Shown: positions 2,285 to 34,462, counted from the stretch's first letter. The stretch: 34,462 bases of DNA from Candidatus Iainarchaeum sp. (GCA_043816965.1 JBDRHK010000038.1:1-34462), one strand, 5' to 3'. Notes: generated from the sequence alone by a model not told the origin. Made by a program: numbers and translations.

Positions 2285-2379
2285 TAGCCCCGAGGAGATT
2301 CGAACTCCTGTCACTGCCTTTCCCTATTTGGTCATAAAATATCAGAGGGCAGTATCCTTGGCCACTAGACTACGGGGCT
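2285..2379 (-). tRNA. tRNA-Gln(CTG) with 22-nt intron at 37/38 (intron 2320-2341); CCA not encoded
   Basis: Minus strand: acceptor AGCCCCG/CGGGGCT-A, anticodon stem CTGCC/GGCAG with CT-CTG-A, T arm AGGAG-TTCGAAT-CTCCT. BHB motif: helix CTCT/AGGG with bulges GA|T and AA|A. Confidence 0.95.
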
Positions 2380-2802: not shown

Positions 2803-5800
2803 TTACTTTCGTTCAGGTCTCCAGGAGAATTTTCCCTCCTTAGGGCCTTCTTTTTCCTTTGCATTGAACCAGTCATCCAGATCCCTGCTCACATTGGACC
2901 AGATGGAATCTTCCTTATGGACCTTTTTTACCGCATCATTCAAGCCCCATGGCCCTGATCCCTCACTCTTAACCTTCTTGTATTTCTTGTAGCTGTGCCT
3001 GACGAAAAGCCCGCTTCCAAAGAGCACAAATATCAGGGCAATTACAACAAGCAAAATTATAAGTATTATTATAATTGTAACAAGGTCTAGCCCCTCGCCA
3101 GCAGCCTGTTTGAAGCTTGGTGTTTCTCCACTCAGTAAAGGTATAGGCGGGGCAATGAAATCATTAATTACCCCGTCATCAATCAATGCATCTGCCTCAC
3201 CCTTTGAAAGGCCGTTCAGCCCATAGCTGAAAGTGGCGGTTTCGCCGGCCAAAACCTCTGCGCTGAATTTAATTATCGGGTCAGATTCAATTACTGTGAA
3301 ACCCCCGGAAATTTCGGATGAATCCCCTGCAAAGCTTTTCGGGACAAATTCTATAATCTGGATTGTTTTTGCTTCCCCTGAATTGTTTGTAAACTTAATT
3401 TCAATTTTTGCATCATATGTGGCAAGGGCATCAGAACCTTTCTTTGTAATTTTCAGGTTCCTTTCAACATTGTTTTCAGCAAGAAGTTCAACAGCTTTCT
3501 CTGATTGTGTGCCGATTAAATTGGTGGCATTAACCAAACCGGCCAGGTTGTCAGTGCTGAAATTGTATTTGGCTGTTTTGTAGGTGGTTTCATCTGTTGG
3601 AGGAGGTTCTGGAGGAGATCCCCCATTGTTCTTCAATGTAACTGAAATTATTGCCTCATCAGCATTTGCTGCCTTGTCCACAACCTCTGCTTTGAGTTCA
3701 TACTGGCCGTCTGCCATTTCGCTTGTGTCCCATTTGTAAACATAGCTTCCGCCGGTCTTGCCTGTAACCCCTGAGATTTTCTCCCAGTCCCCTGTTGATT
3801 TGTAGTAAAAGTTAACTGTTCTGATTCCTGAACCATTATCAGAAGCATCTGCCTTAAGGTCAACTGTTCCGCCAATTTCAGTATTTTCTGCAGGGGCCTC
3901 CCAGCTGACTGATGGTTCGGCAGCATCAATATAAAAGTCAGCCAAGGCGTCACACAAATTATTCTCAGAGTCCTTCCCCATTACAAGTATCTGCGCATTG
4001 CCTGTCTCGCCGCTTTCAACAGTGAATGAGGTTGAAATAAGTGAGGTGTTGTTTTTATTTTCCTCCAGGCGAGTGGTCTGTCCGCCCTTTTTCAGCTTTA
4101 CATCTGTATCGTACATCTTCCCCCCTGTTGAGGAAACACTAACATCCACCGTTCCTTCTTTTACATAAGCATCAACATCAATATTGATTGTTATATCACA
4201 ACCAATTTCGGGCCTTACAGTCCTCTCAGGGCTCATGCTTCCCTGATTGCCCACATTGTCAATCGGCCTGATTTTATAGTAATATGTCGTGTTTGCAGCC
4301 ATATTGGAGGCAACATCTGTGTAGTATCTGTTTGTGGTTGTATCAATCTTATCAGTTGCGGCATCTGCTATATTGAAGTTCCTGAAGACGCTCCTGTAAA
4401 TTTCATAATAATCCATTCCGGCATGGTCATCGCTTGAGGCGGCCCACTCAAGCCTTACGCTTCCGTCACTACTTGCGGTAGCGGTGAAACTCCCAGGGGT
4501 TGTCGGGCCTGTTGTGTCAACCTTAATTGTGTAGTGGTCTGTGTTTCCGCAGCAGATTCCATTGCATGCCCTCAAATGGAAATACCATGTTCCGTCTGAC
4601 TTGCTGTCAGTCATTGAGGTGTCAGATCTGTCAATTGATTCATCAGGTGTTGTTGAAGATGAATCATTAAACTCATAACTGTAACCTGTTGCGTTGGCCA
4701 CAGTTGCCCAGCTTAATTCAATTGTCCCGTCGGCATCCCAGGTATTTTCCGGGTGTGAGGAGCTTTCAATAACCGGAGTTCCCAAACTGCAGCCGCTTGC
4801 CACCGGAGTCACAATATCGCTGCTCTCTGAGGCAGGGCTTTCATTTCCTGCGGCATCAACGGCAGTAATTTTGAAGTAATAATCAGTTCCATTGCCCAAT
4901 CCTGAATTGAGATAAGTTGTAGTGCCTTTGGCAACAGTCGTAACTAAAGTATTAGCATCCCAGGCCTGCCCTGCAGTAATCCTGTAAATTTTAATCCCTG
5001 TAACATCAACCTCACCATGAGCACTCCAGCTGACTGTAACCGCCCCATTTCCTGCGCTCACCGATGGCTTTCCCGGAGCGGTAGGCGTTCCTGGGGAAAC
5101 AGAGACAGCCGTCACCGACTTATCCTCATTCGAATTTGTGTCAACTGCGGTCACAGCGAAGTAATAATTCTGGTTTGTGGTAAGCGAACTCGCTTCATAA
5201 GTGGTTGTTGAGGAATCCGTGGTGTCGATTGCGGTCAATGAAGTTACATCTGTAATTGCGGAAGTTTCCTGATAGATGTTGTAATGGTCCAAATCCCCGG
5301 CACCACTTGCAGCCCAGTCCAATTGGACACTTGTGTCAGAGAGCTCTGTAACTGTTAAACCTGTAATGTCATCAGGAGCTGTCGTATCTGCAGCCGCGGC
5401 AATTGTGAATGCCCACACAGATTGTGTTGCCGAATTCCCTGCATTGTCCTTGGCGTCAAGGGTCACATTGACCTCCTGGCCGACGGTGAAAGGCGTTGAA
5501 GGGGTAAATGTTACCGTACCGGACGCGAAATCAAGCTCTGCGCTTGTCACTGCGTAATTGGTGCCCTCAACATTCATCGTAATTGTTGCGGAATTAATGT
5601 CAGATGTTGCGTCGCTCAAAGACGCGGTTATTGGCTGGCTTAAATTGCTGGGTGTTGCGCCATTGGCCGGTGAAAGATTTGAGATGGTGGGCGCAACATT
5701 ATCAAAAATTATTGTATCGCTTGAAGTGGCAGTGTTAGCGTCAGTGCTCTCAACCTTTATATGCACTGTTTTGGTTCCATTATCAGCATTGCAGCCGCCC

Positions 5801-6677: not shown

Positions 6678-7457
6678 AACCGAGGTTTTAATGTCCTCTG
6701 CGCAGGAGCATTTCTTCTCCAAAGAATCAATTTTAGGCATGGTCTCCAGGAAAATCTTTTTCACATTTTCCACATTCTGCGCCATCACCTTCATGACTTC
6801 ATCAATTGTGACAGCTTGACAATTTGAGTCAAAGCAGTCATAATCAGTGCTCATAGCAACAACCTGATAATGCATCCCTGCCTCGCGCGCGAGAACACAC
6901 TCAGGAACGGTCGACATATTTATCACATCAGCCCCCCACTGGCGAAACATCAGTGATTCAGCCCTTGTGCTGAACCTCGGGCCCTCGATTGTGATTACTG
7001 TTTTATTCACATGGCTCTTAATTCCCAATTCCTTTGCAACCCCGGCCATAAGCCTGCGCAGTTCAGGGCAAAATGGCTCAGCCATAGGGAGATGGCAAAC
7101 CCTGTCCTTATCATAAAAAGTGGAAGCCCTTTTCGTTGTCCTGTCAATAAACTGATCAGGAAAAATCAAATGCCCTGGCTCAATTTCCTTGCGCAGTGAG
7201 CCGCACGCGCTGGAGGCGAGGATGTGCGTCACTCCCAATTGCTTAAGTGCATCAATATTTGCGCGGTTGGGGACATTAGTAGGCATAATGCTGTGCTTAG
7301 GCCCGTGCCGGGAGAGAATTGCGACATCCTTTCCCGCAATCTTCCCGATTTTTATTTTTGAGGAGGGTTTTCCCCATTCAGTGGAAATTTCCTGCTCCTT
7401 GGCATCTTTAAGGATTTTTGGATCCTCCAAACCTGAACCGCCAATAATCCCAATCAT
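6666..7457 (-). CDS. mtnP: 5'-methylthioadenosine phosphorylase
   Basis: IGIIGGSG, RHG..H...P, ACGSL, EGPRFSTRAES, INMST.PE and TDYD motifs. Confidence 0.95.
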   Translation of the reverse strand: MIGIIGGSGLEDPKILKDAKEQEISTEWGKPSSKIKIGKIAGKDVAILSRHGPKHSIMPTNVPNRANIDALKQLGVTHILASSACGSLRKEIEPGHLIFPDQFIDRTTKRASTFYDKDRVCHLPMAEPFCPELRRLMAGVAKELGIKSHVNKTVITIEGPRFSTRAESLMFRQWGADVINMSTVPECVLAREAGMHYQVVAMSTDYDCFDSNCQAVTIDEVMKVMAQNVENVKKIFLETMPKIDSLEKKCSCAEDIKTSVLNK

Positions 7458-27773: not shown

Positions 27774-28887
27774 GAAGATTCTAGTTACAGGCGGGGCAGG
27801 TTTTATTGGCTCGCACTTGGTTGACAGGTTAATTTCTGACGGGAATGATGTAAGGGTTCTTGATAATTTAGAGAAGCAGGTTCATGTTGATGGGAAAATT
27901 CCTTCTTACTTCAATTCGAAAGCAGAATTTATTGAGGGGGATGTAAGGAAGACTGATGATTTGAGAAAAGCAATCGCCGATGTTGAGGTTGTTTATCATT
28001 TGGCTGCGCGCGTTGGGGTTGGGCAGTCGATGTATGAGATTAATAATTATGTAGAAACCAATACCTTTGGAACTGCGAAGTTATTGGATTTGCTGGTTAA
28101 TGGGGAAAATTCAGTTAAGAAAATTGTTGTCGCAGGCTCGATGAGTGAGTATGGTGAAGGTTCCTACAATTGCGGCAAGTGCGGACTTGTTATAGGTGAG
28201 TTGAGAAGCGAAGGGCAGATGTCCAAGGGCGAGTGGGAATTAAAATGCAGGAACTGCAATGCTATTATTGAACCAATCCCTACCTCTGAGGAAAAGCCAT
28301 TGCAGGTAAATTCCATTTATGCAACAACAAAAAGGGATCAGGAAGAAATGGTTATGGAAATTGGGGATGCTTATGGGATTAATTCCACTTCCTTAAGATT
28401 TTTCAATGTTTATGGCCCAAGGCAGTCCCTTTCAAATCCCTACACAGGGGTTGCGGCAATCTTTCTTAGCAGGATGAAAAACAACCAATCGCCGATTGTT
28501 TATGAGGATGGCCTGCAGTCCAGGGACTTTGTCTGGATTGGGGATATTGTTGATGCCTGTGTTCTTGCAATGGATTCGAAAAATGCTGAAGGGAAAATTT
28601 ACAATGTCGGTTCCGGCGACCATACAACAATCCTGAATGTTGCTGAAACAATCAACAAACTTCTGGGAAAGGATATTAGGCCGAAAGTAATGGGCAAGTT
28701 CCGAAAAGGGGATGTGAGGCACTGCTTTTCAGATATTTCGAAAATTAAAAATGAATTAGGTTTCTCCCCTAAAGTGAATTTCGAGCAGGGGATGAAAGAG
28801 CTTGTTGAATGGGGAGAGAAGGAAGAGGCAATTGACATGTTTGAGAAGGCGGAGAAGGAACTGGAGAGCAAGGGATTGGTGGATTGA
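27766..28887 (+). CDS. NAD-dependent epimerase/dehydratase with CxxC...CxxC insertion
   Basis: TGGAGFIGS, YATTK, LRFFNVYGPRQSLSNPYTGV; CGKC and CRNC. Confidence 0.9.
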   Translation: MTKKILVTGGAGFIGSHLVDRLISDGNDVRVLDNLEKQVHVDGKIPSYFNSKAEFIEGDVRKTDDLRKAIADVEVVYHLAARVGVGQSMYEINNYVETNTFGTAKLLDLLVNGENSVKKIVVAGSMSEYGEGSYNCGKCGLVIGELRSEGQMSKGEWELKCRNCNAIIEPIPTSEEKPLQVNSIYATTKRDQEEMVMEIGDAYGINSTSLRFFNVYGPRQSLSNPYTGVAAIFLSRMKNNQSPIVYEDGLQSRDFVWIGDIVDACVLAMDSKNAEGKIYNVGSGDHTTILNVAETINKLLGKDIRPKVMGKFRKGDVRHCFSDISKIKNELGFSPKVNFEQGMKELVEWGEKEEAIDMFEKAEKELESKGLVD

Positions 28888-29822
28888 TGAAAACCGTTGT
28901 TGTTGCCGGAGGGGCAGGATTTATAGGAAGCCATTTATGTGAATTTCTTTTGAAAAAGGGTGAAAATGTAATCTGCATTGATGACCTTTCAACAGGGGAC
29001 AAGAAAAATATCGAGCATTTAATGAACAACAGCAATTTTGTGTTTATGCGGCAGGATATTACCGAGCCTTTTTCAGTAAGGGATGATGTTGCCAAAGTTT
29101 TTAATCTTGCTTCCCCTGCATCGCCTGTGGACTACCAAAAAAAACCTATCAAAACCCTAATGGTTGGCGCAATGGGCACAAAGAACTGCCTTGATTTGGC
29201 GAAGGATAAAAAAGCAAGATTTTTGCAGGCATCCACCTCTGAAATTTACGGCGACCCTTTGGAGCACCCCCAAGTGGAAAGCTATTGGGGAAATGTAAAC
29301 CCTACAGGAGTTCGTTCATGCTACGATGAAGCAAAACGATTTGGTGAGGCACTTGTAATGGCATATAGGCGAAAATTCAATCTTGACACAAAAATCGCGA
29401 GGATTTTCAATACCTATGGCCCTAGAATGAGATATGATGACGGGAGAGTAGTCCCGAATTTAATTTTCCAGGCTTTGAACAAAAAGCCACTAACTGTTTA
29501 TGGGAATGGGGAACAAACCCGCTCCTTTTGCTATGTTTCAGATATGGTAGAAGGTCTTACTGCACTTATGAATTCCTCCACAAACGAGCCTGTGAATTTA
29601 GGAAACCCGAATGAAATGACAATCAATGAATTCGCCAATAAAGTGATTGAACTTACAGGAGTTAATTCCAAAATCGAAAATAAGCCCCTCCCTGAGGATG
29701 ACCCCCTAAAAAGGAAACCGGATATCACAAAAGCAAAGGAATTATTGGGCTGGGAGCCTAAAATAATCCTGGATATAGGGCTGCAGAAGACTATTGATTG
29801 GTTTGCTTCTATAAAGAAGTGA
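28884..29822 (+). CDS. uxs: UDP-glucuronate decarboxylase (UDP-xylose synthase)
   Basis: LASPASP..Y, ASTSEIYGDP, YWGNVNP.G.RSCYDEAKR, DDGRVV, DDP..RKPDI. Confidence 0.92.
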   Translation: MMKTVVVAGGAGFIGSHLCEFLLKKGENVICIDDLSTGDKKNIEHLMNNSNFVFMRQDITEPFSVRDDVAKVFNLASPASPVDYQKKPIKTLMVGAMGTKNCLDLAKDKKARFLQASTSEIYGDPLEHPQVESYWGNVNPTGVRSCYDEAKRFGEALVMAYRRKFNLDTKIARIFNTYGPRMRYDDGRVVPNLIFQALNKKPLTVYGNGEQTRSFCYVSDMVEGLTALMNSSTNEPVNLGNPNEMTINEFANKVIELTGVNSKIENKPLPEDDPLKRKPDITKAKELLGWEPKIILDIGLQKTIDWFASIKK

Positions 29823-29871
29823 TTATTTCTTCCCCTTTGCAGCTGCCAGGTATGCGGGTACGTTCCGAAAA
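29823..29871 (+). repeat. Cassette-boundary repeat R1
   Basis: TTATTTCTTCCCCTTT-GCAGCTGCCAGGTATGCGGGT-ACGTTCCGAAAA; core starts at 29839. Confidence 0.9.
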
Positions 29872-29880
29872 CAAAACATC

Positions 29881-30249
29881 TTATTTCACAAACTCAACAT
29901 TTCCCAAATTCCTGAATTCCTTGTCGCCGGTAAGGAATTTGATGCCGTGTTTTTTCGCAAGTACATAGCCAATGCAGTCAGCATAGGATAATTTCTGTTT
30001 CCTTTTGTCAAACCTGAACTTCGAGGCGGCGATTATGTCCTTTTCCGTCACCTCAATAAGGTTTGCGTTCACTTTTTTGATTTCTCCCGATGCCTTTTCT
30101 TCCCCTTCGGAGGAAACCACCGAGTACGAGAATTCATAAAGCTGGAAAATGCTTGTAAAAACTGGCTCTGATTTATAGGGCTTGTAATTTTCATTCCCTT
30201 TGGCAATTTCAATCAGCGCATAGCTGTCGAAAAAATACAACTCTACCAC
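29881..30249 (-). CDS. VapC/PIN-domain toxin
   Basis: YFFDSYALIE, LYE, LSYADC and LTGDKEF acidic residues. Confidence 0.9.
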   Translation of the reverse strand: MVELYFFDSYALIEIAKGNENYKPYKSEPVFTSIFQLYEFSYSVVSSEGEEKASGEIKKVNANLIEVTEKDIIAASKFRFDKRKQKLSYADCIGYVLAKKHGIKFLTGDKEFRNLGNVEFVK

Positions 30250-30464
30250 TCCTCTCTTCTTACAGAATCCTTGAATTTCTGGGAATCGATCTTAGAACCC
30301 TTCAGGTTCCCGAAAAAATCACCGGACGGCATTTTGACTCTCCTCTTCACCTCTATCCTTATTTCCTCATTTGCTTTTATATTCTCTTTCTCAATAATCT
30401 CTTTAGGAAGGGTAACCCCTATGGAATTGCCCCAATTCCTTGTTTTTACAATAACCTCGGCCAT
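30243..30464 (-). CDS. AbrB/MazE-type antitoxin
   Basis: KTRNWGNSIGVTLPKE; overlaps the vapC start. Confidence 0.9.
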   Translation of the reverse strand: MAEVIVKTRNWGNSIGVTLPKEIIEKENIKANEEIRIEVKRRVKMPSGDFFGNLKGSKIDSQKFKDSVRREEW

Positions 30465-30572
30465 GAAAATCACCAATATAATTATATCTAATTATATATT
30501 TAAATCTTCCCTTTAGGCCTTTTCAGGGCAACTTCTCATAGGATAAAATTTATTGCCCTTTTAAATGGTTTC

Positions 30573-30693
30573 TAGAGTGGACTTCCGGTGCGACACGCCT
30601 GTTCCTCGCGGAGCACCTAAGGGCCGGGTTTACGGGACGATCCATTCTACCCTCGTGGAGGGCAGGCAGAATGGCTCATACTCGCTACGCTCG
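30573..30693. other. GC-rich structured non-coding segment
   Basis: TAGAGTGGA/TCCATTCTA, TGTTCC-TCGC-GGAGCA, CCCTC-GTG-GAGGG and CCATTCT/AGAATGG stems; ends in CTCGCTACGCTCG. Confidence 0.55.
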
Positions 30694-30696
30694 CAA

Positions 30697-30743
30697 TTTA
30701 CTCCCCCAGCAGCTGCACAGTATGCGGGTGGCGAGGGCGAAAA
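30697..30743 (+). repeat. Cassette-boundary repeat R2
   Basis: TTTACTCCCCCA-GCAGCTGCACAGTATGCGGGT-GGCGAGGGCGAAAA; core starts at 30709. Confidence 0.9.
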
Positions 30744-30746
30744 CAA

Positions 30747-31100
30747 TTATCTTTTCCTATATTTAAACTTTTTATCGTAGCTCGGGTGGTCCATAATATC
30801 CAAAACAAATGCGATTATTTCAATTTTTGTTTCACTATCGGTTAAGGAATATAGCATTCTCCACCTGCTTGGCAGTTCAACCCTGAAAAGGTTGGTTATC
30901 CCGTACTTTTCCCGGTACTCTTTCGGAATGAGATTTTTCGCAATTGGGTTGCCATAATGCGGGTTTGCCTTTATCAGATCAGATTTTTTATTCAGTGCCT
31001 TTAAGATGCCCCTCTCGATTTTCGAGTTTGGGGCCTCCCTGTTAAGGTAGTTATAGACCTCTTCAGCCTCATCAGACAAGACAACTTCAACAGTTTTCAT
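30747..31100 (-). CDS. Putative RelE/ParE-fold toxin
   Basis: NP.YG, LFRVELP..WRMLY and H..YDK.F.Y pattern; ATGA-coupled to the upstream gene. Confidence 0.65.
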   Translation of the reverse strand: MKTVEVVLSDEAEEVYNYLNREAPNSKIERGILKALNKKSDLIKANPHYGNPIAKNLIPKEYREKYGITNLFRVELPSRWRMLYSLTDSETKIEIIAFVLDIMDHPSYDKKFKYRKR

Positions 31101-31369
31101 ATTCGCAGGCCCTTCTCAACAGCTTTCCTGAGTTTTGGATTTGGATTGTGAATCCATGTTATGCCCTTCATAGTCACCGCAATCTTGTTGCTTTCCTCAA
31201 GGTATTCAAGAATAACTTTGAGAGTATTGTGGTTCACCTGCTTTGGCAGCCTTCTCTTGAGTTCTGCCACGGTAACAAGGCTTTCATCCATTCCCTTCAG
31301 CGCATTCTCCGCCATAATGACCGTATTTAGGGTCGGGGAATGCCTCGGAAGCTGTGCCTGCTTTAACAT
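31097..31369 (-). CDS. Small wHTH-like protein, putative antitoxin
   Basis: SPTLNTV.M.E...ELKRRLPKQVNHNTL..ILEYLEESNKI; paralogue of 20438-20719. Confidence 0.7.
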   Translation of the reverse strand: MLKQAQLPRHSPTLNTVIMAENALKGMDESLVTVAELKRRLPKQVNHNTLKVILEYLEESNKIAVTMKGITWIHNPNPKLRKAVEKGLRI

Positions 31370-31522
31370 ATAAATCACTAAAAGTTATTAATTAATAACA
31401 ATTAGTTATCAAATTATATTTAAAGCTTTTGTTAGGCAAATTTCCGGAATCTCCCCAAAACCACCAAAAGAATAAACTTTATCGCATTTTTAAATGCTTC
31501 CGGAACCTCGTTTCCGGTGCGG

Positions 31523-31564
31523 ATTATCCTCCCGCAGCTGCCCGGTATGCGGGTGCGATATGCA
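31523..31564 (+). repeat. Cassette-boundary repeat R3
   Basis: ATTATCCTCCC-GCAGCTGCCCGGTATGCGGGT-GCGATATGCA; core starts at 31534. Confidence 0.9.
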
Positions 31565-31580
31565 GGAGCTTTGTTCAACC

Positions 31581-32543
31581 TTACTTTATATATTTCCTGT
31601 AAACGGCAAATAAGTTCCTGTATGTTTTTTTGTATTTATCAAGGAAAAGCCTTTCGAGGTTTGCAGTGTAGCCGCGATGGAAATCCTCAAGGCATTTTAT
31701 GTAAGAATCACGTTGGCTTTTCCTTATTATAAGCGGGGCATAACCATTGCGCAGCAAAATAACATTTGAAAGAAACCGGCCTACCCTTCCATTTCCATCC
31801 TCGAAAGGATGAATTCTTTCAAATTTCCCATGAAATAAAGCAGAAAGCTGCAAGGGATGAATTTTTTCAATCTCTTTTCCATACCACTCCAGCAAGTTTC
31901 CCATCTCCCCCTTAACCTTCTCAGGCGGAGTAAGCTTTACATCGCCACCCACTATATAATTAGGCACGGCCTTGTATCCTGTCCTTGTGTCAATATCTTC
32001 CATAAGCATCCTGTGTATCCTTATTATGTCCTTCTCCGTTATATCAAACCTGTTTTTCAGCATAATATCCATTACTTTTCGGGAATTCCTGGTTTCATAA
32101 ATCTCCCTCAAATCTCTTCCCTCAACAACCCTATTTTCAAACATCACAATAGCAACATCCTTCAAAGTCAGGGAGTTGCCCTCTATGGCGTTTGACTCAT
32201 AGGTAAAATTCGCAATAAACCTGTCAAATGCGTCCTTCTTCTGTTCCCTGCTGAATCCTTTTACTGTGTGCTGGTAATCTACCTTTATCCCCTCAATCTT
32301 CCCAATCTCTTCTGCGCTGAATATGCTGCCTGTTTGGTATTTTCCCACAGCAAACTTCGCAAAGGCTTCCTTCTCCTTTTTGGCAAAAAACTCAGCATAC
32401 TCTGCCTCAAGTGCCTTTATGCCCTTATGCCTGCCCTTAATCAGTTTCTGCAGTGTTTTTACCTTCCCATCAGGCAGCCTGATGGATTTTGTAAGGTAGC
32501 AGTATTTACTCCCACTTATCTCTTTCTCTTTCAGATAAACCAT
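31581..32543 (-). CDS. Fic family protein
   Basis: Canonical HPFEDGNGRVGR motif and inhibitory YESNAIEGN motif. Confidence 0.93.
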   Translation of the reverse strand: MVYLKEKEISGSKYCYLTKSIRLPDGKVKTLQKLIKGRHKGIKALEAEYAEFFAKKEKEAFAKFAVGKYQTGSIFSAEEIGKIEGIKVDYQHTVKGFSREQKKDAFDRFIANFTYESNAIEGNSLTLKDVAIVMFENRVVEGRDLREIYETRNSRKVMDIMLKNRFDITEKDIIRIHRMLMEDIDTRTGYKAVPNYIVGGDVKLTPPEKVKGEMGNLLEWYGKEIEKIHPLQLSALFHGKFERIHPFEDGNGRVGRFLSNVILLRNGYAPLIIRKSQRDSYIKCLEDFHRGYTANLERLFLDKYKKTYRNLFAVYRKYIK

Positions 32544-32552
32544 AGATAAATA

Positions 32553-32595
32553 TTACCCCTACAAATATATAAACATATCTTTATTGTAGGGGTAA
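32553..32595. promoter_or_regulatory. 12-bp perfect inverted repeat flanking the Fic TATA box
   Basis: TTACCCCTACAA-N19-TTGTAGGGGTAA; the spacer holds minus-strand TTTATATA-like sequence. Confidence 0.7.
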
Positions 32596-32630
32596 ATGCC
32601 TAATACAGTTACTCATCAAAAACCCCGCTA

Positions 32631-32672
32631 ATTATTCCACAGCAGCTCCCCGGTATGCGGGTACTTACGCAA
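32631..32672 (+). repeat. Cassette-boundary repeat R4
   Basis: ATTATTCCACA-GCAGCTCCCCGGTATGCGGGT-ACTTACGCAA; core starts at 32642. Confidence 0.9.
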
Positions 32673-32704
32673 CAATTAAATTCTCATAAGACAATTAATT
32701 CCTT

Positions 32705-33298
32705 ATGCCGCCAAACCCCCATAAGCCTGTGATGTTTGAGGTTGACCATGCCCTGAAAGATGTGGACAGTGCTGAGGCTGAATTCAGGGAAGCGATTAAG
32801 GGAAAAAGGGCACTGTACATAGAACTCACCGGCGCCAATGTGGATCTGATTCTGAAAGAAGGAAAATTCCACCAGTCCCCGGGCGCCCGTGCATACCAGC
32901 AGCTTGTGAAGATTGCCCATGAGGCGGGGCTTAGAGTGATTGCGCTGGACATCTCCCATAACAAAAGGCCGCCCAAACTCAAGGACAGGCTTGACTGGCA
33001 GGAAAGGGAGGATTATGACTCTTTTCCCAAAAGGGAAAAAAGGTGGCTTGGCATTTTGAGGAACGCCGGCTTGGGCTCTATCATAGTGATGCATCCCGGC
33101 CATGCTTTTGGGGTCGCCCAGGGGCTTGGGCTCCCGAAGGAGAACATCCTTAGGGGAGAAAAATATGCGGCCGAGCACAGGGAGCGAATGATGCTGGATG
33201 CCAGATTCCGCGATGTAACCGAAAAGGTTGAAAGCGGAAGGCTTGAAAGGAAAAGGGAAAGAGCAAAAGCAAGAAAACTGCGGACGCCGAGGGGATGA
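32705..33298 (+). CDS. Hypothetical basic protein, possibly EreA/ChaN/TraB-like fold
   Basis: Fits between R4 and R5; weak H...IE...VIALD...RE...PGH pattern; K/R-rich tail. Confidence 0.6.
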   Translation: MPPNPHKPVMFEVDHALKDVDSAEAEFREAIKGKRALYIELTGANVDLILKEGKFHQSPGARAYQQLVKIAHEAGLRVIALDISHNKRPPKLKDRLDWQEREDYDSFPKREKRWLGILRNAGLGSIIVMHPGHAFGVAQGLGLPKENILRGEKYAAEHRERMMLDARFRDVTEKVESGRLERKRERAKARKLRTPRG

Positions 33299-33302
33299 AA
33301 AT

Positions 33303-33349
33303 TTTATTCCAGAAGCATCTGCCCGGCTATGCGGGTACTGTGCGAAAAA
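33303..33349 (+). repeat. Cassette-boundary repeat R5
   Basis: TTTATTCCAGAA-GCATCTGCCCGGCTATGCGGGT-ACTGTGCGAAAA; core starts at 33315, with a 1-nt insertion. Confidence 0.88.
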
Positions 33350-33404
33350 TCCCCCTCCCACAATCTTAAGGAAGAAATAAATACTTCCAACGCCTATCTT
33401 TTTT

Positions 33405-34112
33405 ATGCCAAAACCCAAAAAGAGAACAATCCCTGACAAGAAAAGGCTCAGGATGCTGCTGGATGCCGAGAAGAAGCACCCTAAACACATAAGCCTGAAG
33501 AAGCAGAGTCCACTGCCCATACTGGACCGCTTTCTGGTCAAGAACCTTGCGCCCGGGAAAAGTGCCGAATCAGAAATCAGGCGGATACTGAAATTCAAGA
33601 GGAAGGCAAGGGTTTTTGAGATTTGCCCTGGCCAGGCGCAGGCTCTGACAGAACTCAAGCTCATGTTTGGCGACAGGATTCACACCATTGCCATCGACAA
33701 GGAAGTGCCGCAGGCAAAGGCAACTATTGACGAGTTCAGGAAAGGTGAGGTGTTAGAGTTCGAATTCCCGAAAAACTGCGACCTCATATTCTCGCTGAGA
33801 AGCCTGGGCTTTGTCGGCTCTCCGGAGGTGATTGTGGAGAAGGCCATCAAATCCCTTGCCCCTGGCGGGGTCGCCTACCTCGACTTCCCGATCCGCTCCG
33901 GATGGGGGGCCAGCAATTTCGGCTTCTGGGACAGGAAATTTCTGGATGAAATGGTGGAAAGGAGAAAATACAAGGGCATGGCGGTAAAGGGCAAGCTCTT
34001 CAAGGACAGGCGAACGGCCCTCTCAGGAAGCCCTGGCAACCAGAAAGAAATCGTCATCGAAACCCCGCTCACCTACCAACTCAGGCTTTCAAAACCGGCA
34101 AAAAGGAAATAA
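33405..34112 (+). CDS. Class I SAM-dependent methyltransferase-like protein
   Basis: VFEICPGQAQA (motif I-like), IAID, DLIFSLRSL, SLAPGG; basic N-terminus MPKPKKR. Confidence 0.7.
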   Translation: MPKPKKRTIPDKKRLRMLLDAEKKHPKHISLKKQSPLPILDRFLVKNLAPGKSAESEIRRILKFKRKARVFEICPGQAQALTELKLMFGDRIHTIAIDKEVPQAKATIDEFRKGEVLEFEFPKNCDLIFSLRSLGFVGSPEVIVEKAIKSLAPGGVAYLDFPIRSGWGASNFGFWDRKFLDEMVERRKYKGMAVKGKLFKDRRTALSGSPGNQKEIVIETPLTYQLRLSKPAKRK

Positions 34113-34139
34113 TTTTCTCATTTTCACTGAAGCCGGCAA

Positions 34140-34184
34140 TTTATTCTAAAAGAATCTGACACGGCATGCAGGTACTTACGCAAA
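34140..34184 (+). repeat. Cassette-boundary repeat R6 (most diverged)
   Basis: TTTATTCTAAAA-GAATCTGACACGGCATGCAGGT-ACTTACGCAAA; shares GGTACTTACGCAA exactly with R4. Confidence 0.75.
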
Positions 34185-34331
34185 CCCTGAGTTAAATAAC
34201 CATGCTCCCCACTCCCCCAACCCCAAACCACCCACCCCAAAAAATCCGAAAAACACTATTCCTTTGCAGGGATTAGGGGGGGATATTTAACCCAAACTGA
34301 ACGGGGGACGGGTGGTTATTAAAGTTCCAAT

Positions 34332-34462
34332 CTATCCCACAACACCAAAGAAAAAGAAAAAAATGAAAAGAGCTAGAATTGCAGGTAAGGTTAGAATGGA
34401 ACTTATAATTAAAAAAGGAATCGAAAGAAAAAGTAATTCTTTAGGAAGAGATGAATAAATCG
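34332..34462 (-). CDS. C-terminal fragment of a probable membrane protein (starts beyond the window)
   Basis: Manual translation IYSSLPKELLFLSIPFLIISSILTLPAILALFIFFFFFGVVG*. Confidence 0.5.
   Translation of the reverse strand, partial: IYSSLPKELLFLSIPFLIISSILTLPAILALFIFFFFFGVVG

Follow-up and report, generated by a model that had tools for sequence, protein, structure and literature searches.

A candidate gene-capture array with its own repeated site in Candidatus Iainarchaeum sp.

Results

The 34,462-nt stretch of DNA that was analysed (the window, i.e. contig C38 of the Candidatus Iainarchaeum sp. genome G000) ends in a series of single genes and TA pairs that are separated by co-oriented copies of a short repeat. 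The array is probably a cassette system in which site-specific recombination acts on double-stranded, sequence-defined sites, with the recombinase supplied in trans. In the genome of a sister species, G001, the same sites are followed by different modules, which makes the array look like a gene-capture system. A first-pass annotation of the window had proposed a gene-capture platform with its own recombination site, and this reading is supported: the tests of genomic scatter, of invariance among relatives and of attC character all came out in its favour.

A repeat divides the end of the contig into units

The repeat is 45–50 bp long, with the consensus WWTTAYTC-N4-5-GCAGCTGCCC-GGYATGC-GGGT-RS..GCGRAA. 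From the left, WWTTAYTC is followed by 4–5 variable bases and then by CAGCTGCCC / GGYATGC / GGGTGGC, which form an imperfect dyad; the GCGRAA tail is loosely kept. The dyad is weak, comprising 6–7 of 9 positions around the 7-bp centre as judged by eye, and its right arm differs among the sites. A site of ~45 bp had been annotated; the repeat is real, and it is longer than stated because the conserved WWTTAYTC on the left belongs to it.

Six full copies lie at the contig end, all on the + strand and at the positions annotated before. Their cores (GGYATGCRGGT) start at 29849, 30719, 31544, 32652, 33326 and 34163, i.e. with spacings of 870, 825, 1108, 674 and 837 bp. The stretch described as invariant in R1–R5 is indeed so (TATGCGGGT throughout), and its counterpart in R6 is CATGCAGGT. 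With up to three mismatches allowed, the 21-mer GCAGCTGCCCGGTATGCGGGT has four matches in the window versus none in 100 dinucleotide shuffles, and the 11-mer GGYATGCRGGT has 19 matches in the genome versus none for the reversed control. The array begins directly behind the stop codon of the last core gene, and its features are as follows.

28884–29822, + strand: uxs-like NAD-dependent sugar-nucleotide epimerase/decarboxylase, last core gene (Pfam GDP_Man_Dehyd, 1.9e-56; Epimerase, 3.3e-50)
29823–29871, + strand: repeat R1, array head (core 29849–29859)
29881–30476, − strand: cassette 1, VapC (PIN; 29881–30249; Pfam PIN, 4.4e-10) and MazE/AbrB-type antitoxin (30243–30476; MazE_antitoxin, 6.1e-08)
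30536–30694, + strand: promoter-like module (30536–30593), then a structured element of ~110 nt, abutting R2 (nhmmer, 2.7e-15)
30695–30744, + strand: repeat R2 (core 30719–30729)
30747–31378, − strand: cassette 2, RelE/ParE-like 117-aa protein (30747–31100) and winged-helix 93-aa protein (31097–31378)
31464–31523, + strand: promoter-like module, second copy, abutting R3 (nhmmer, 5.9e-17; alignment)
31522–31566, + strand: repeat R3, nearest to the consensus (no mismatches to the 21-mer; core 31544–31554)
31581–32543, − strand: cassette 3, Fic/DOC family protein (Pfam Fic, 6.6e-22)
32630–32674, + strand: repeat R4 (core 32652–32662)
32705–33298, + strand: cassette 4, 197-aa protein of no family (no Pfam matches at E≤0.01)
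33302–33349, + strand: repeat R5, with one additional base ahead of the core (core 33326–33336)
33405–34112, + strand: cassette 5, 235-aa methyltransferase-like protein (Methyltransf_23, 7.7e-4; Methyltransf_11, 2e-3; both below the curated cut-offs)
34139–34185, + strand: repeat R6, the most diverged full copy (33.3 bits; core 34163–34173, GGCATGCAGGT)
34194–34315, + strand: C-rich "long element" of ~120 bp, ending in a degenerate seventh repeat core (34301–34315)

The repeats split the contig end into self-contained units, as had been annotated. All six copies are intergenic, none lies inside a TA pair, and their orientation is constant while the cargo switches strand. The earlier count of six is correct for full copies, to which the degenerate seventh has to be added; the conserved element that it ends has four copies in the genome, with a mean column identity of 71% in the alignment of the four. 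The AbrB–VapC, winged-helix and Fic assignments were recovered with Pfam, the second of them as a weak SelB-wing_2 match of the 93-aa protein, whereas the methyltransferase match is weak and sub-threshold. The RelE-like assignment stands less directly: the 117-aa protein itself has no Pfam matches, and its 115-aa homologue in the G001 array (32% identity) matches ParE_toxin weakly (2.4e-4). The 93-aa protein also has a homologue in that array (46% identity).

The repeats are confined to arrays

With nhmmer and a covariance model, 22–23 copies of the repeat were found in G000, all of them in arrays on six or seven contigs, i.e. C38 (six copies), C57 (five), C96 (eight), C29, C4, C47 and C54; one weak match lies on C26. 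The copies are mostly at contig ends, and those on any one contig share their orientation. Exact end overlaps of 141 bp join C47 to C57 and C96 to C29, and these pairs are therefore pieces of longer arrays. The cargo comprises TA modules (PIN, HicAB, ParE/RelE), Fic, methyltransferases, GNAT, one nucleotidyltransferase, and orphans.

Scattering of the motif next to housekeeping genes, as a REP or a terminator, had been named as the outcome that would speak against gene capture. The remaining ~1.3 Mb of G000 outside the arrays contains no copies, beside housekeeping genes or elsewhere. REPs are scattered genome-wide and accompanied by a Y1 transposase (RAYT). Like REP/BIME elements, the repeats are short and intergenic and have some dyad character; unlike them, they are found in arrays only, and a search of G000 (86% complete) for Y1 HUH transposase genes (PF01797) had no matches. 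The repeat model detected seven copies in G001, the only other genome of the genus, and two single weak matches in 149 other genomes of the order. One of these two matches was inspected and sits in GC-rich, coding-looking sequence.

The same sites precede different cassettes in a sister species

The comparison of the two species depends entirely on incomplete MAGs, G000 (86% complete) and G001 (89%). In both, the site stands at two corresponding array heads, one behind uxs and one behind a GT87 gene. At the first head, the uxs products are 94% identical, and contig C71 of G001 matches the window with 85% identity over 4806 bp, up to position 29859, past which the sequences are unrelated. Thus, synteny stops at the final base of the R1 core. 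The first cassette behind it encodes HicAB in G001 versus VapBC in G000. At the second head, 5635 bp of C10 of G001 and C47 of G000 are 87% identical; the match extends across the first site behind the GT87 gene, and the first cassette is only partly common to both. The proteins of the core flanks are 85–95% identical between the genomes, in contrast to at most 46% over their length for pairs of cassette proteins; cassette content is therefore variable, as the first-pass annotation had expected. Speaking against the cassette reading, the homologous wHTH–RelE pairs of the two genomes have opposite orientations relative to the site.

A second kind of site, type B, is 35 bp long and has AATTATTTC and CAGCTGCCC in common with the main site. 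On C31 of G000, two direct type-B copies (97% identical) surround a gene for a 415-aa surface protein, an insert of 1.3 kb. C28 of G001 has one copy between the same LysRS and tRNA genes, and the 415-aa gene is absent. Site-specific integration of the tyrosine-recombinase type predicts one site in the empty state and two direct copies in the occupied state. The type-B site has this difference, a classic integration signature; the main site was seen only as arrays.

Promoter-like modules adjoin some of the sites

The most serious alternative, although an unlikely one, is that the repeat serves regulation or structure (as a terminator, insulator, protein-binding site or 3′ part of a small RNA) between accessory genes, and that the species came to differ by ordinary recombination, homologous or illegitimate, at short repeats. 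The promoter-like module and the structured element form a genome-wide family of ~30 copies. The left end of the site runs into the end of this module, so part of the conservation could serve transcription. Three sites lie directly 3′ of the structured element, for which RNAalifold predicted 25 pairs from five copies, 11 of them with compensatory changes.

The finding of no recombinase gene in or beside any array piece weighs against the cassette reading and fits the regulatory alternative, as do the public sequencing runs. Excised circles and empty junctions had been proposed as a check; in these runs, which contain the organism as contigs only (depth 2–4), the junctions were the same as in the window, and neither circles nor a joint at the repeat were seen. 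Against it, the orientation of the repeat is fixed and does not depend on that of the neighbouring genes, which is not how terminators or promoters behave. In addition, no terminator-like match coincides with a repeat, and copies are lacking outside the arrays. The uxs breakpoint, which falls on the repeat to the base, and the type-B site, single in G001 and double in G000, likewise argue for recombination at the sites.

XerA is the only tyrosine recombinase common to both genomes

Three tyrosine recombinases were found in G000 and two in G001, and XerA (NF040815, 278.5 bits, cut-off 220) is the only one common to both. The search for a co-occurring recombinase, as suggested before, tied no enzyme to the sites, and none of those found adjoins an array; candidates are XerA and enzymes of 486, 411 and 284 aa. 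The arrays might be Xer-dependent, similar to IMEX or dif modules, with the host's chromosome-dimer resolvase XerA recombining the sites; we regard this as unlikely. XerA is the sole enzyme of its type found in both array-carrying genomes, and the type-B site lies on the xerA contig, 7–8 kb from the gene. However, no array adjoins xerA, and the cassette site has no 11-6-11 (or 11-7/8-11) dyad. Among the 65 palindromes of the 11-6/7/8-11 type that were listed at one mismatch or fewer, none is the cassette repeat, in agreement with the earlier remark that the sites are not Xer/dif dyads. A better XerA target is a perfect 9-7-9 palindrome ~500 bp from xerA, which is conserved in both genomes; it looks nothing like the cassette site and has only TATG in common with the cassette core.

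Sites of the dif type are 11-6-11 dyads; in the pdif modules known from Acinetobacter plasmids, the flanking sites alternate in orientation. Like IMEX and pdif Xer modules, the arrays consist of small gene modules between short, here putative, recombinase sites, and would be moved by a host recombinase encoded elsewhere; unlike them, their sites are not 11-6-11 dyads and all have the same direction, with one orientation per contig.

An empty locus without a core

At a locus on C4, G000 has ~658 additional bases (a site and a 168-aa ORF) between two genes that adjoin in G001, a difference in line with the cassette reading. The "empty" G001 sequence contains the motif TTATTC/TTTATT only, without a core, and the extra DNA of G000 starts directly after the motif with a core. 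Simple site-by-site recombination therefore does not fit at this locus. The locus would fit units that are small non-autonomous, transposon-like elements and insert serially 3′ of TTAYT(C), similar to the single-strand transposons of the IS200/IS605 type. These have a Y1 HUH transposase and subterminal hairpins and insert 3′ of a short target, which they do not duplicate. Each "site" would then consist of the right-hand tip of one element and the left-hand end of its neighbour; this reading is unlikely. Strict co-orientation is typical of strand-specific insertion, and at the uxs head the stretch from TTATTC to the core is far more diverged between the genomes than the gene end, both of which would fit. 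On the other hand, no PF01797 match was found in G000, no TnpB-type gene was found in G000 or G001, and the sites have no conserved or stable hairpin. The C4 right junction has no matching end, and the type-B insertion duplicates the entire 35-bp site, unlike such transposition.

The sites lack the features of attC

In attC sites, the R″ (RYYYAAC) and R′ (GTTRRRY) boxes are 45–160 bp apart, and the single strand forms an imperfect hairpin whose structure is better conserved than its sequence. In the region 29800–34462, neither strand has an R″/R′ pair, nor is there one less than 100 nt from a core; the entire window contains two per strand. RNAalifold predicted no pairs for 21 repeat copies, and the best candidate helix has no compensatory pairs and equals shuffles. 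In single-stranded DNA folding, 12 of 12 folds were no better than shuffles (z −1.47 to +1.65), and a comparison with Rfam produced no matches, either at the gathering threshold or at E≤1. Thus, the sites are conserved in sequence and not in structure, the reverse of attC, and the earlier statement that they lack the attC arrangement is supported.

No tyrosine recombinase of either genome reached the integron-integrase cut-off (best XerA, 214.1 bits in two stretches; TIGR02249 cut-off 265), and an IntI with the IntI-specific extra domain next to an attI was found in neither. It is therefore very improbable that the array consists of ordinary integron cassettes minus the integrase (CALIN) with diverged attC sites, in spite of the co-oriented sites between small, TA-rich accessory genes and of the integrons and CALINs that archaeal MAGs are reported to contain (Ghaly et al. 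2022, PMC9668308), a survey that has "Iainarchae" zero times in its main text and one supplementary table.

Discussion

We propose that a chromosomal array of gene cassettes has its head at the end of the window, and that each unit, a single gene or a TA pair, would be bounded by a directly repeated, sequence-defined recombination site of ~45–50 bp. Recombination would be carried out in trans by a site-specific enzyme whose gene lies in another part of the genome. The enzyme is most likely a tyrosine recombinase, with putative strand exchange at both edges of the 7-bp centre GGYATGC. Two altered sites on C96 break at these edges, i.e. a hybrid near 5626, which has the left arm of the long element with a canonical centre and right arm, and a truncated copy near 4100, of which GGGTGG and what comes after remain. 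Recombination between two sites on double-stranded DNA would insert, excise and replace units, and may be going on at present. The constant orientation of the sites would lead to excision or insertion instead of inversion, irrespective of how the cargo is oriented. The array heads, of which there are at least two and probably three or more, each lie directly behind the stop codon of a housekeeping gene.

No published description of such arrays was found in the literature. They resemble sedentary chromosomal integrons and CALINs in the tandem arrangement of single-gene or TA cassettes with one co-oriented site between units, in a TA- and orphan-rich content that is hypervariable among close relatives behind a fixed head, and, for CALINs, in that an integrase is not adjacent. 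Unlike integrons, they have sequence-conserved, non-folding sites without R″/R′ boxes, no IntI, no attI next to an integrase, and several heads after housekeeping genes. The VCRs of the Vibrio cholerae superintegron are folding attC sites of ~120 bp. Like VCRs, the repeat is lineage-specific and highly similar among copies and recurs along an extended chromosomal array in which TA cassettes are numerous, whereas its length is 45–50 bp and it does not fold. In tycheposon-type arrays, the repeats are partial tRNA genes, and the driving tyrosine recombinases may be absent from the array. Here, too, cargo accumulates in tandem at one fixed place in the chromosome, with direct repeats between the units; unlike in tycheposons, the repeat is not tRNA-derived, and only the type-B site adjoins a tRNA gene.

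DPANN archaea have tiny, host-dependent genomes, and their acquisition and exchange of accessory genes are poorly understood. We tentatively suggest that the arrays may well be a gene-capture system distinct from integrons, in which a reduced DPANN genome collects cassettes (TA, defence-like and surface-protein genes) at lineage-specific, sequence-defined double-stranded sites behind several housekeeping stop codons. The trans-acting recombinase would be missed by integron and Xer models; it would be either a new enzyme or XerA with another type of site as its target. Because the sites are short and well defined, and because empty and occupied loci exist in nature, the search for this enzyme can be put to a direct test in vitro. 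If the proposal is true, the platform is invisible to standard integron finders, and gene capture by site-specific recombination would be wider and mechanistically more varied than surveys of archaeal integrons suggest.

Distribution of the cassette site in the genome

The last 4.6 kb of the window, which comprises the whole contig C38, contain six co-oriented repeats (R1–R6), with core starts at 29849, 30719, 31544, 32652, 33326, and 34163, and every copy lies in an intergenic region. For the 21-mer core, four matches with at most 3 mismatches were found in the window, compared to none in 100 shuffled sequences; the repeat noticed in the first-pass annotation is real and far beyond chance. 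An alignment of 21 site sequences from several contigs yielded the consensus WWTTAYTC, 4–5 variable bases, GCAGCTGCCC, GG, YATGCGGGT, RS, and a loose GCGRAA, and the letters T..ATGC.GG are invariant in all 21 of them.

The genome of the window (G000) is a MAG of 1.34 Mb in 109 contigs and is 86% complete. Profiles built from the window copies or from every copy converge with a sequence-only covariance model on 22–23 copies, which are grouped on array contigs, with one further weak match on C26. All copies within each contig share one orientation.

Copies of the cassette site per contig of G000
C38 (window): 6
C57: 5
C96: 8
C29: 1 (variant)
C4: 1
C47: 1
C54: 1
C26: one weak match, within an apparent gene

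Contigs C47 and C57, as well as the reverse of C96 and C29, are joined by exact 141-bp end overlaps, so the short contigs are pieces of longer arrays that the assembler did not resolve.

A degenerate seventh copy in the window forms the end of a conserved element of ~120 bp. This long element is C-rich and has four copies that are about 90% alike over 110 bp, each ending in a variant site core. On C96, the long elements precede paralogous GNAT-like genes, which point away from them.

Copies of the long element (L, extracted locus)
Window 34194–34315
L002 about 3215–3340
L002 about 5560–5700 (minus strand)
L006 about 1724–1849

Gene content of the arrays

The gene units between the window sites are of several kinds.

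Cassettes of the window
PIN protein and MazE/AbrB-type antitoxin
Winged-helix protein and RelE/ParE-like protein
Fic protein
Protein without a family
Protein with a weak methyltransferase match

The cargo of the other arrays of G000 includes PIN, HicA/HicB, DUF2204 nucleotidyltransferase, lipoproteins, membrane proteins, and many family-less proteins. The GC content of the array is that of the remaining window. The wHTH-RelE pairs of G000 and G001, the only other genome of the genus, are homologous but have opposite orientations relative to the sites, so the site does not fix the orientation of the cargo.

Comparison with known site types

The first-pass annotation had set the site apart from ordinary attC sites and from the 11-6-11 dif dyad, and both distinctions were borne out. 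No attC R''/R' box pairs were found within the array on either strand. RNAalifold predicted no consensus base pairs for the 21 site copies, and 12 ssDNA folds, one per strand for each of the six window sites, were shuffle-like, with z values from −1.47 to +1.65. The single plausible helix, GCTGCCCG/CGGGTGGC, showed 0 compensatory changes and was no better than column shuffles. Reading the core as a hairpin drew no support from consensus folding, the compensatory-change test, or ssDNA folding, and an outer inverted repeat AATTATTC...GAATAATT was likewise unsupported, its mean best match being 5.35/8 versus 5.38 in a direct-repeat control. None of the 65 dif-like sites listed (11-bp inverted repeats, 6–8-bp spacers, at most 1 mismatch) was the cassette repeat. 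No terminator-like match coincided with a repeat, and no Rfam family matched the array. The conservation of the site is one of sequence, not of shape, which points to a protein that reads it on double-stranded DNA.

Proposed position of strand exchange

One reading of the core is CAGCTGCCC / GGYATGC / GGGTGGC, i.e. two 9-bp, imperfectly inverted arms around a 7-bp centre. Two aberrant copies on C96 have their breaks at the edges of this centre. In the copy near 5626, the left arm of the long-element variant is followed by a centre and right arm of canonical sequence, and the copy near 4100 has lost TTAT through ATGC and has retained GGGTGG onward. The synteny break with G001 behind uxs, the last core gene before R1, lies just after GGGT and is compatible with exchange at the edges of the centre. 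A tyrosine recombinase that exchanges strands at the borders of its overlap region would leave such hybrid and truncated copies; these few cases suggest strand exchange at the borders of the 7-bp centre. As the most likely mechanism we favour, with moderate confidence, site-specific recombination by an enzyme acting in trans, for which the site would be a new one defined by its sequence. The first-pass interpretation of a gene-capture platform withstood the refuting observations that it had named for itself.

A promoter-like module and a structured element

A promoter-like module, of which G000 contains about 30 copies, is found left of R2, R3, and several site copies elsewhere. Its A/T-rich part, which includes a TATA-like box, precedes ~26 conserved nt that terminate in TTTCCGGTGCG, and most copies have the start of a leftward gene ~27 nt left of the TATA-like box. 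It looks like a propagated, perhaps mobile, promoter. To its right, at least 8 copies have a 60–170-nt element with cUUCGg loops, for which RNAalifold predicted 25 pairs from 5 copies, with compensatory changes in 11. The element has no counterpart in Rfam and is a candidate for a new small RNA family with the same reading direction as the cassette sites.

Promoter-like module and structured element
Module: window 30536–30593 and 31464–31523; further copies e.g. on contigs C22, C50, C21, C5, C15
Structured element: window 30583–30694; L001 1849–1940; L002 4088–4182 (minus strand); L279; L280; C21:4668; C5:7952; C22:18857

The end of the module or structured element is continuous with TTAYTC of the site, and thus part of the left-hand conservation may serve transcription, not recombination. 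The best-placed alternative, a regulatory repeat combined with ordinary recombination, could draw on this continuity; it appears unlikely.

At C81:9281–9350 of G000, a module copy is followed by a sequence resembling a tRNA T-arm and 3′ half, which could belong to a split tRNA gene or be a tRNA fragment where the 411-aa integrase encoded nearby has its integration site.

Candidate recombinases

G000 encodes three tyrosine recombinases, i.e. a 285-aa XerA on C31 and enzymes of 486 aa on C74 and 411 aa on C81 that both have a C-terminal zinc ribbon. G001 encodes the orthologue of XerA and, in addition, a 284-aa enzyme that is unrelated. None of the recombinases found in these two incomplete genomes adjoins an array. 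No serine recombinase or Y1 transposase was found in the incomplete G000, and no TnpB-type gene in either incomplete genome.

XerA of G000 scores 278.5 bits as an archaeal XerA equivalog (cut-off 220). A tRNA gene of the window (2285–2379, minus strand; Rfam tRNA, 52.7 bits) has, with 95 nt, an intron-holding length, and both matches are consistent with an archaeal origin. About 500 bp downstream of xerA lies a perfect 9-7-9 palindrome, CTTATGTAT-N7-ATACATAAG, which is kept in G000 and G001 with one spacer change and is a candidate dif site beside its recombinase gene.

Palindrome near xerA
G000 C31:21000–21028 (L274 about 7001–7029)
G001 L259 894–918

That XerA itself acts on the cassettes would overlap with recombination in trans, and a XerA is present in both genomes. 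However, the palindrome is the likelier dif and is unlike the cassette site, and we give this possibility slightly less credence than a regulatory repeat.

Empty and occupied loci

A related site of 35 bp (type B) on C31 of G000 has AATTATTTC and CAGCTGCCC in common with the main site, then diverges, and contains the palindrome AAAATCGATTTT. Two direct type-B repeats, 97% identical, surround a 1.3-kb segment with a 415-aa gene, whereas the LysRS and tRNA genes that border this locus enclose, in G001, a single copy and no 415-aa gene. One site when empty and two around an insert is the hallmark of site-specific integration. The product of the 415-aa gene is a cysteine-rich surface protein, and the gene was rejected as a recombinase candidate. 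A 290-aa HTH and LAGLIDADG_3 gene (L274 14930–15802), with a tRNA gene on one side and the type-B site on the other, is absent at the equivalent place in G001 and is probably a free-standing homing-endonuclease gene.

On C4, ~658 extra bases of G000 (the repeat and a 168-aa ORF) separate the genes for a methyltransferase and a PEP-utilising enzyme, which are adjacent in G001; the empty sequence there has the TTATTC/TTTATT part of the site alone. This fits an insertion at a secondary site, or another mechanism, and the difference may reflect gain in G000 or loss in G001. A targeted, transposon-like insertion after TTAYTC could account for such a locus; we place it below both a regulatory repeat and XerA. 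A diverged integron is very improbable, as the array lacks attC box pairs and no tyrosine recombinase of G000 or G001 reached the integron-integrase cut-off.

Four public sequencing runs contain parts of the window, all as contigs with a depth of about 2–4. Over R1, R3, and R4 their sequence is that of the window without a difference, and they have no joint at a repeat, at a depth too thin to judge excision.

Reach of the site family and turnover of the cassettes

Of 60 related genomes searched with a strict pattern, G001 was the only one to have the site, and the model gave 7 copies in it. In 149 other genomes of the order, the model gave two single weak matches (G026 and G076), with no repeat array at either locus; the G026 match sits in GC-rich, coding-looking sequence and was rejected as a true site. 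No same-strand repeat family with at least 3 copies was present within 8 kb downstream of uxs in 20 genomes from the order's other families, in a scan of modest sensitivity that found the window array, its positive control, via 3 of 6 copies; this suggests that the uxs array head is special to the genus. A degenerate 20-mer yielded single chance matches alone in metagenome and genome contig collections, mostly in high-GC bacteria, and a profile re-scan of 248 loci gave no real site copy except in G000. Within the modest sensitivity of the scan behind uxs, the site family and the uxs array head appear confined to one genus. The end of the C54 array seemed to be linked to a recombinase-bearing contig of G001, but the similarity was confined to a common lipoprotein signal-peptide region. 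Our literature search found no description of such arrays, and 'Iainarchae' is absent from the text passages and the one supplementary table searched of an archaeal integron survey (PMC9668308).

The two genomes of the genus are collinear at two array heads. At uxs, C71 of G001 matches the window with 85% identity for 4806 bp, and the match stops at base 29859, where the R1 core ends. Past this base, nothing is common to the two genomes, and VapBC in G000 stands against HicAB in G001. At the second head, behind a GT87-family gene, C10 of G001 matches C47 with 87% identity for 5635 bp, a stretch that takes in the first site. The ends of the first cassette are homologous there, the ParE/RelE gene of G001 is largely deleted in G000, and the PIN gene of G000 is absent from G001. 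Flanking core proteins are 85–95% identical, versus 46% for the best cassette-to-cassette match. Thus at least two array heads, each directly behind a housekeeping gene, have been kept in place between G000 and G001, while their cassette contents have been replaced.
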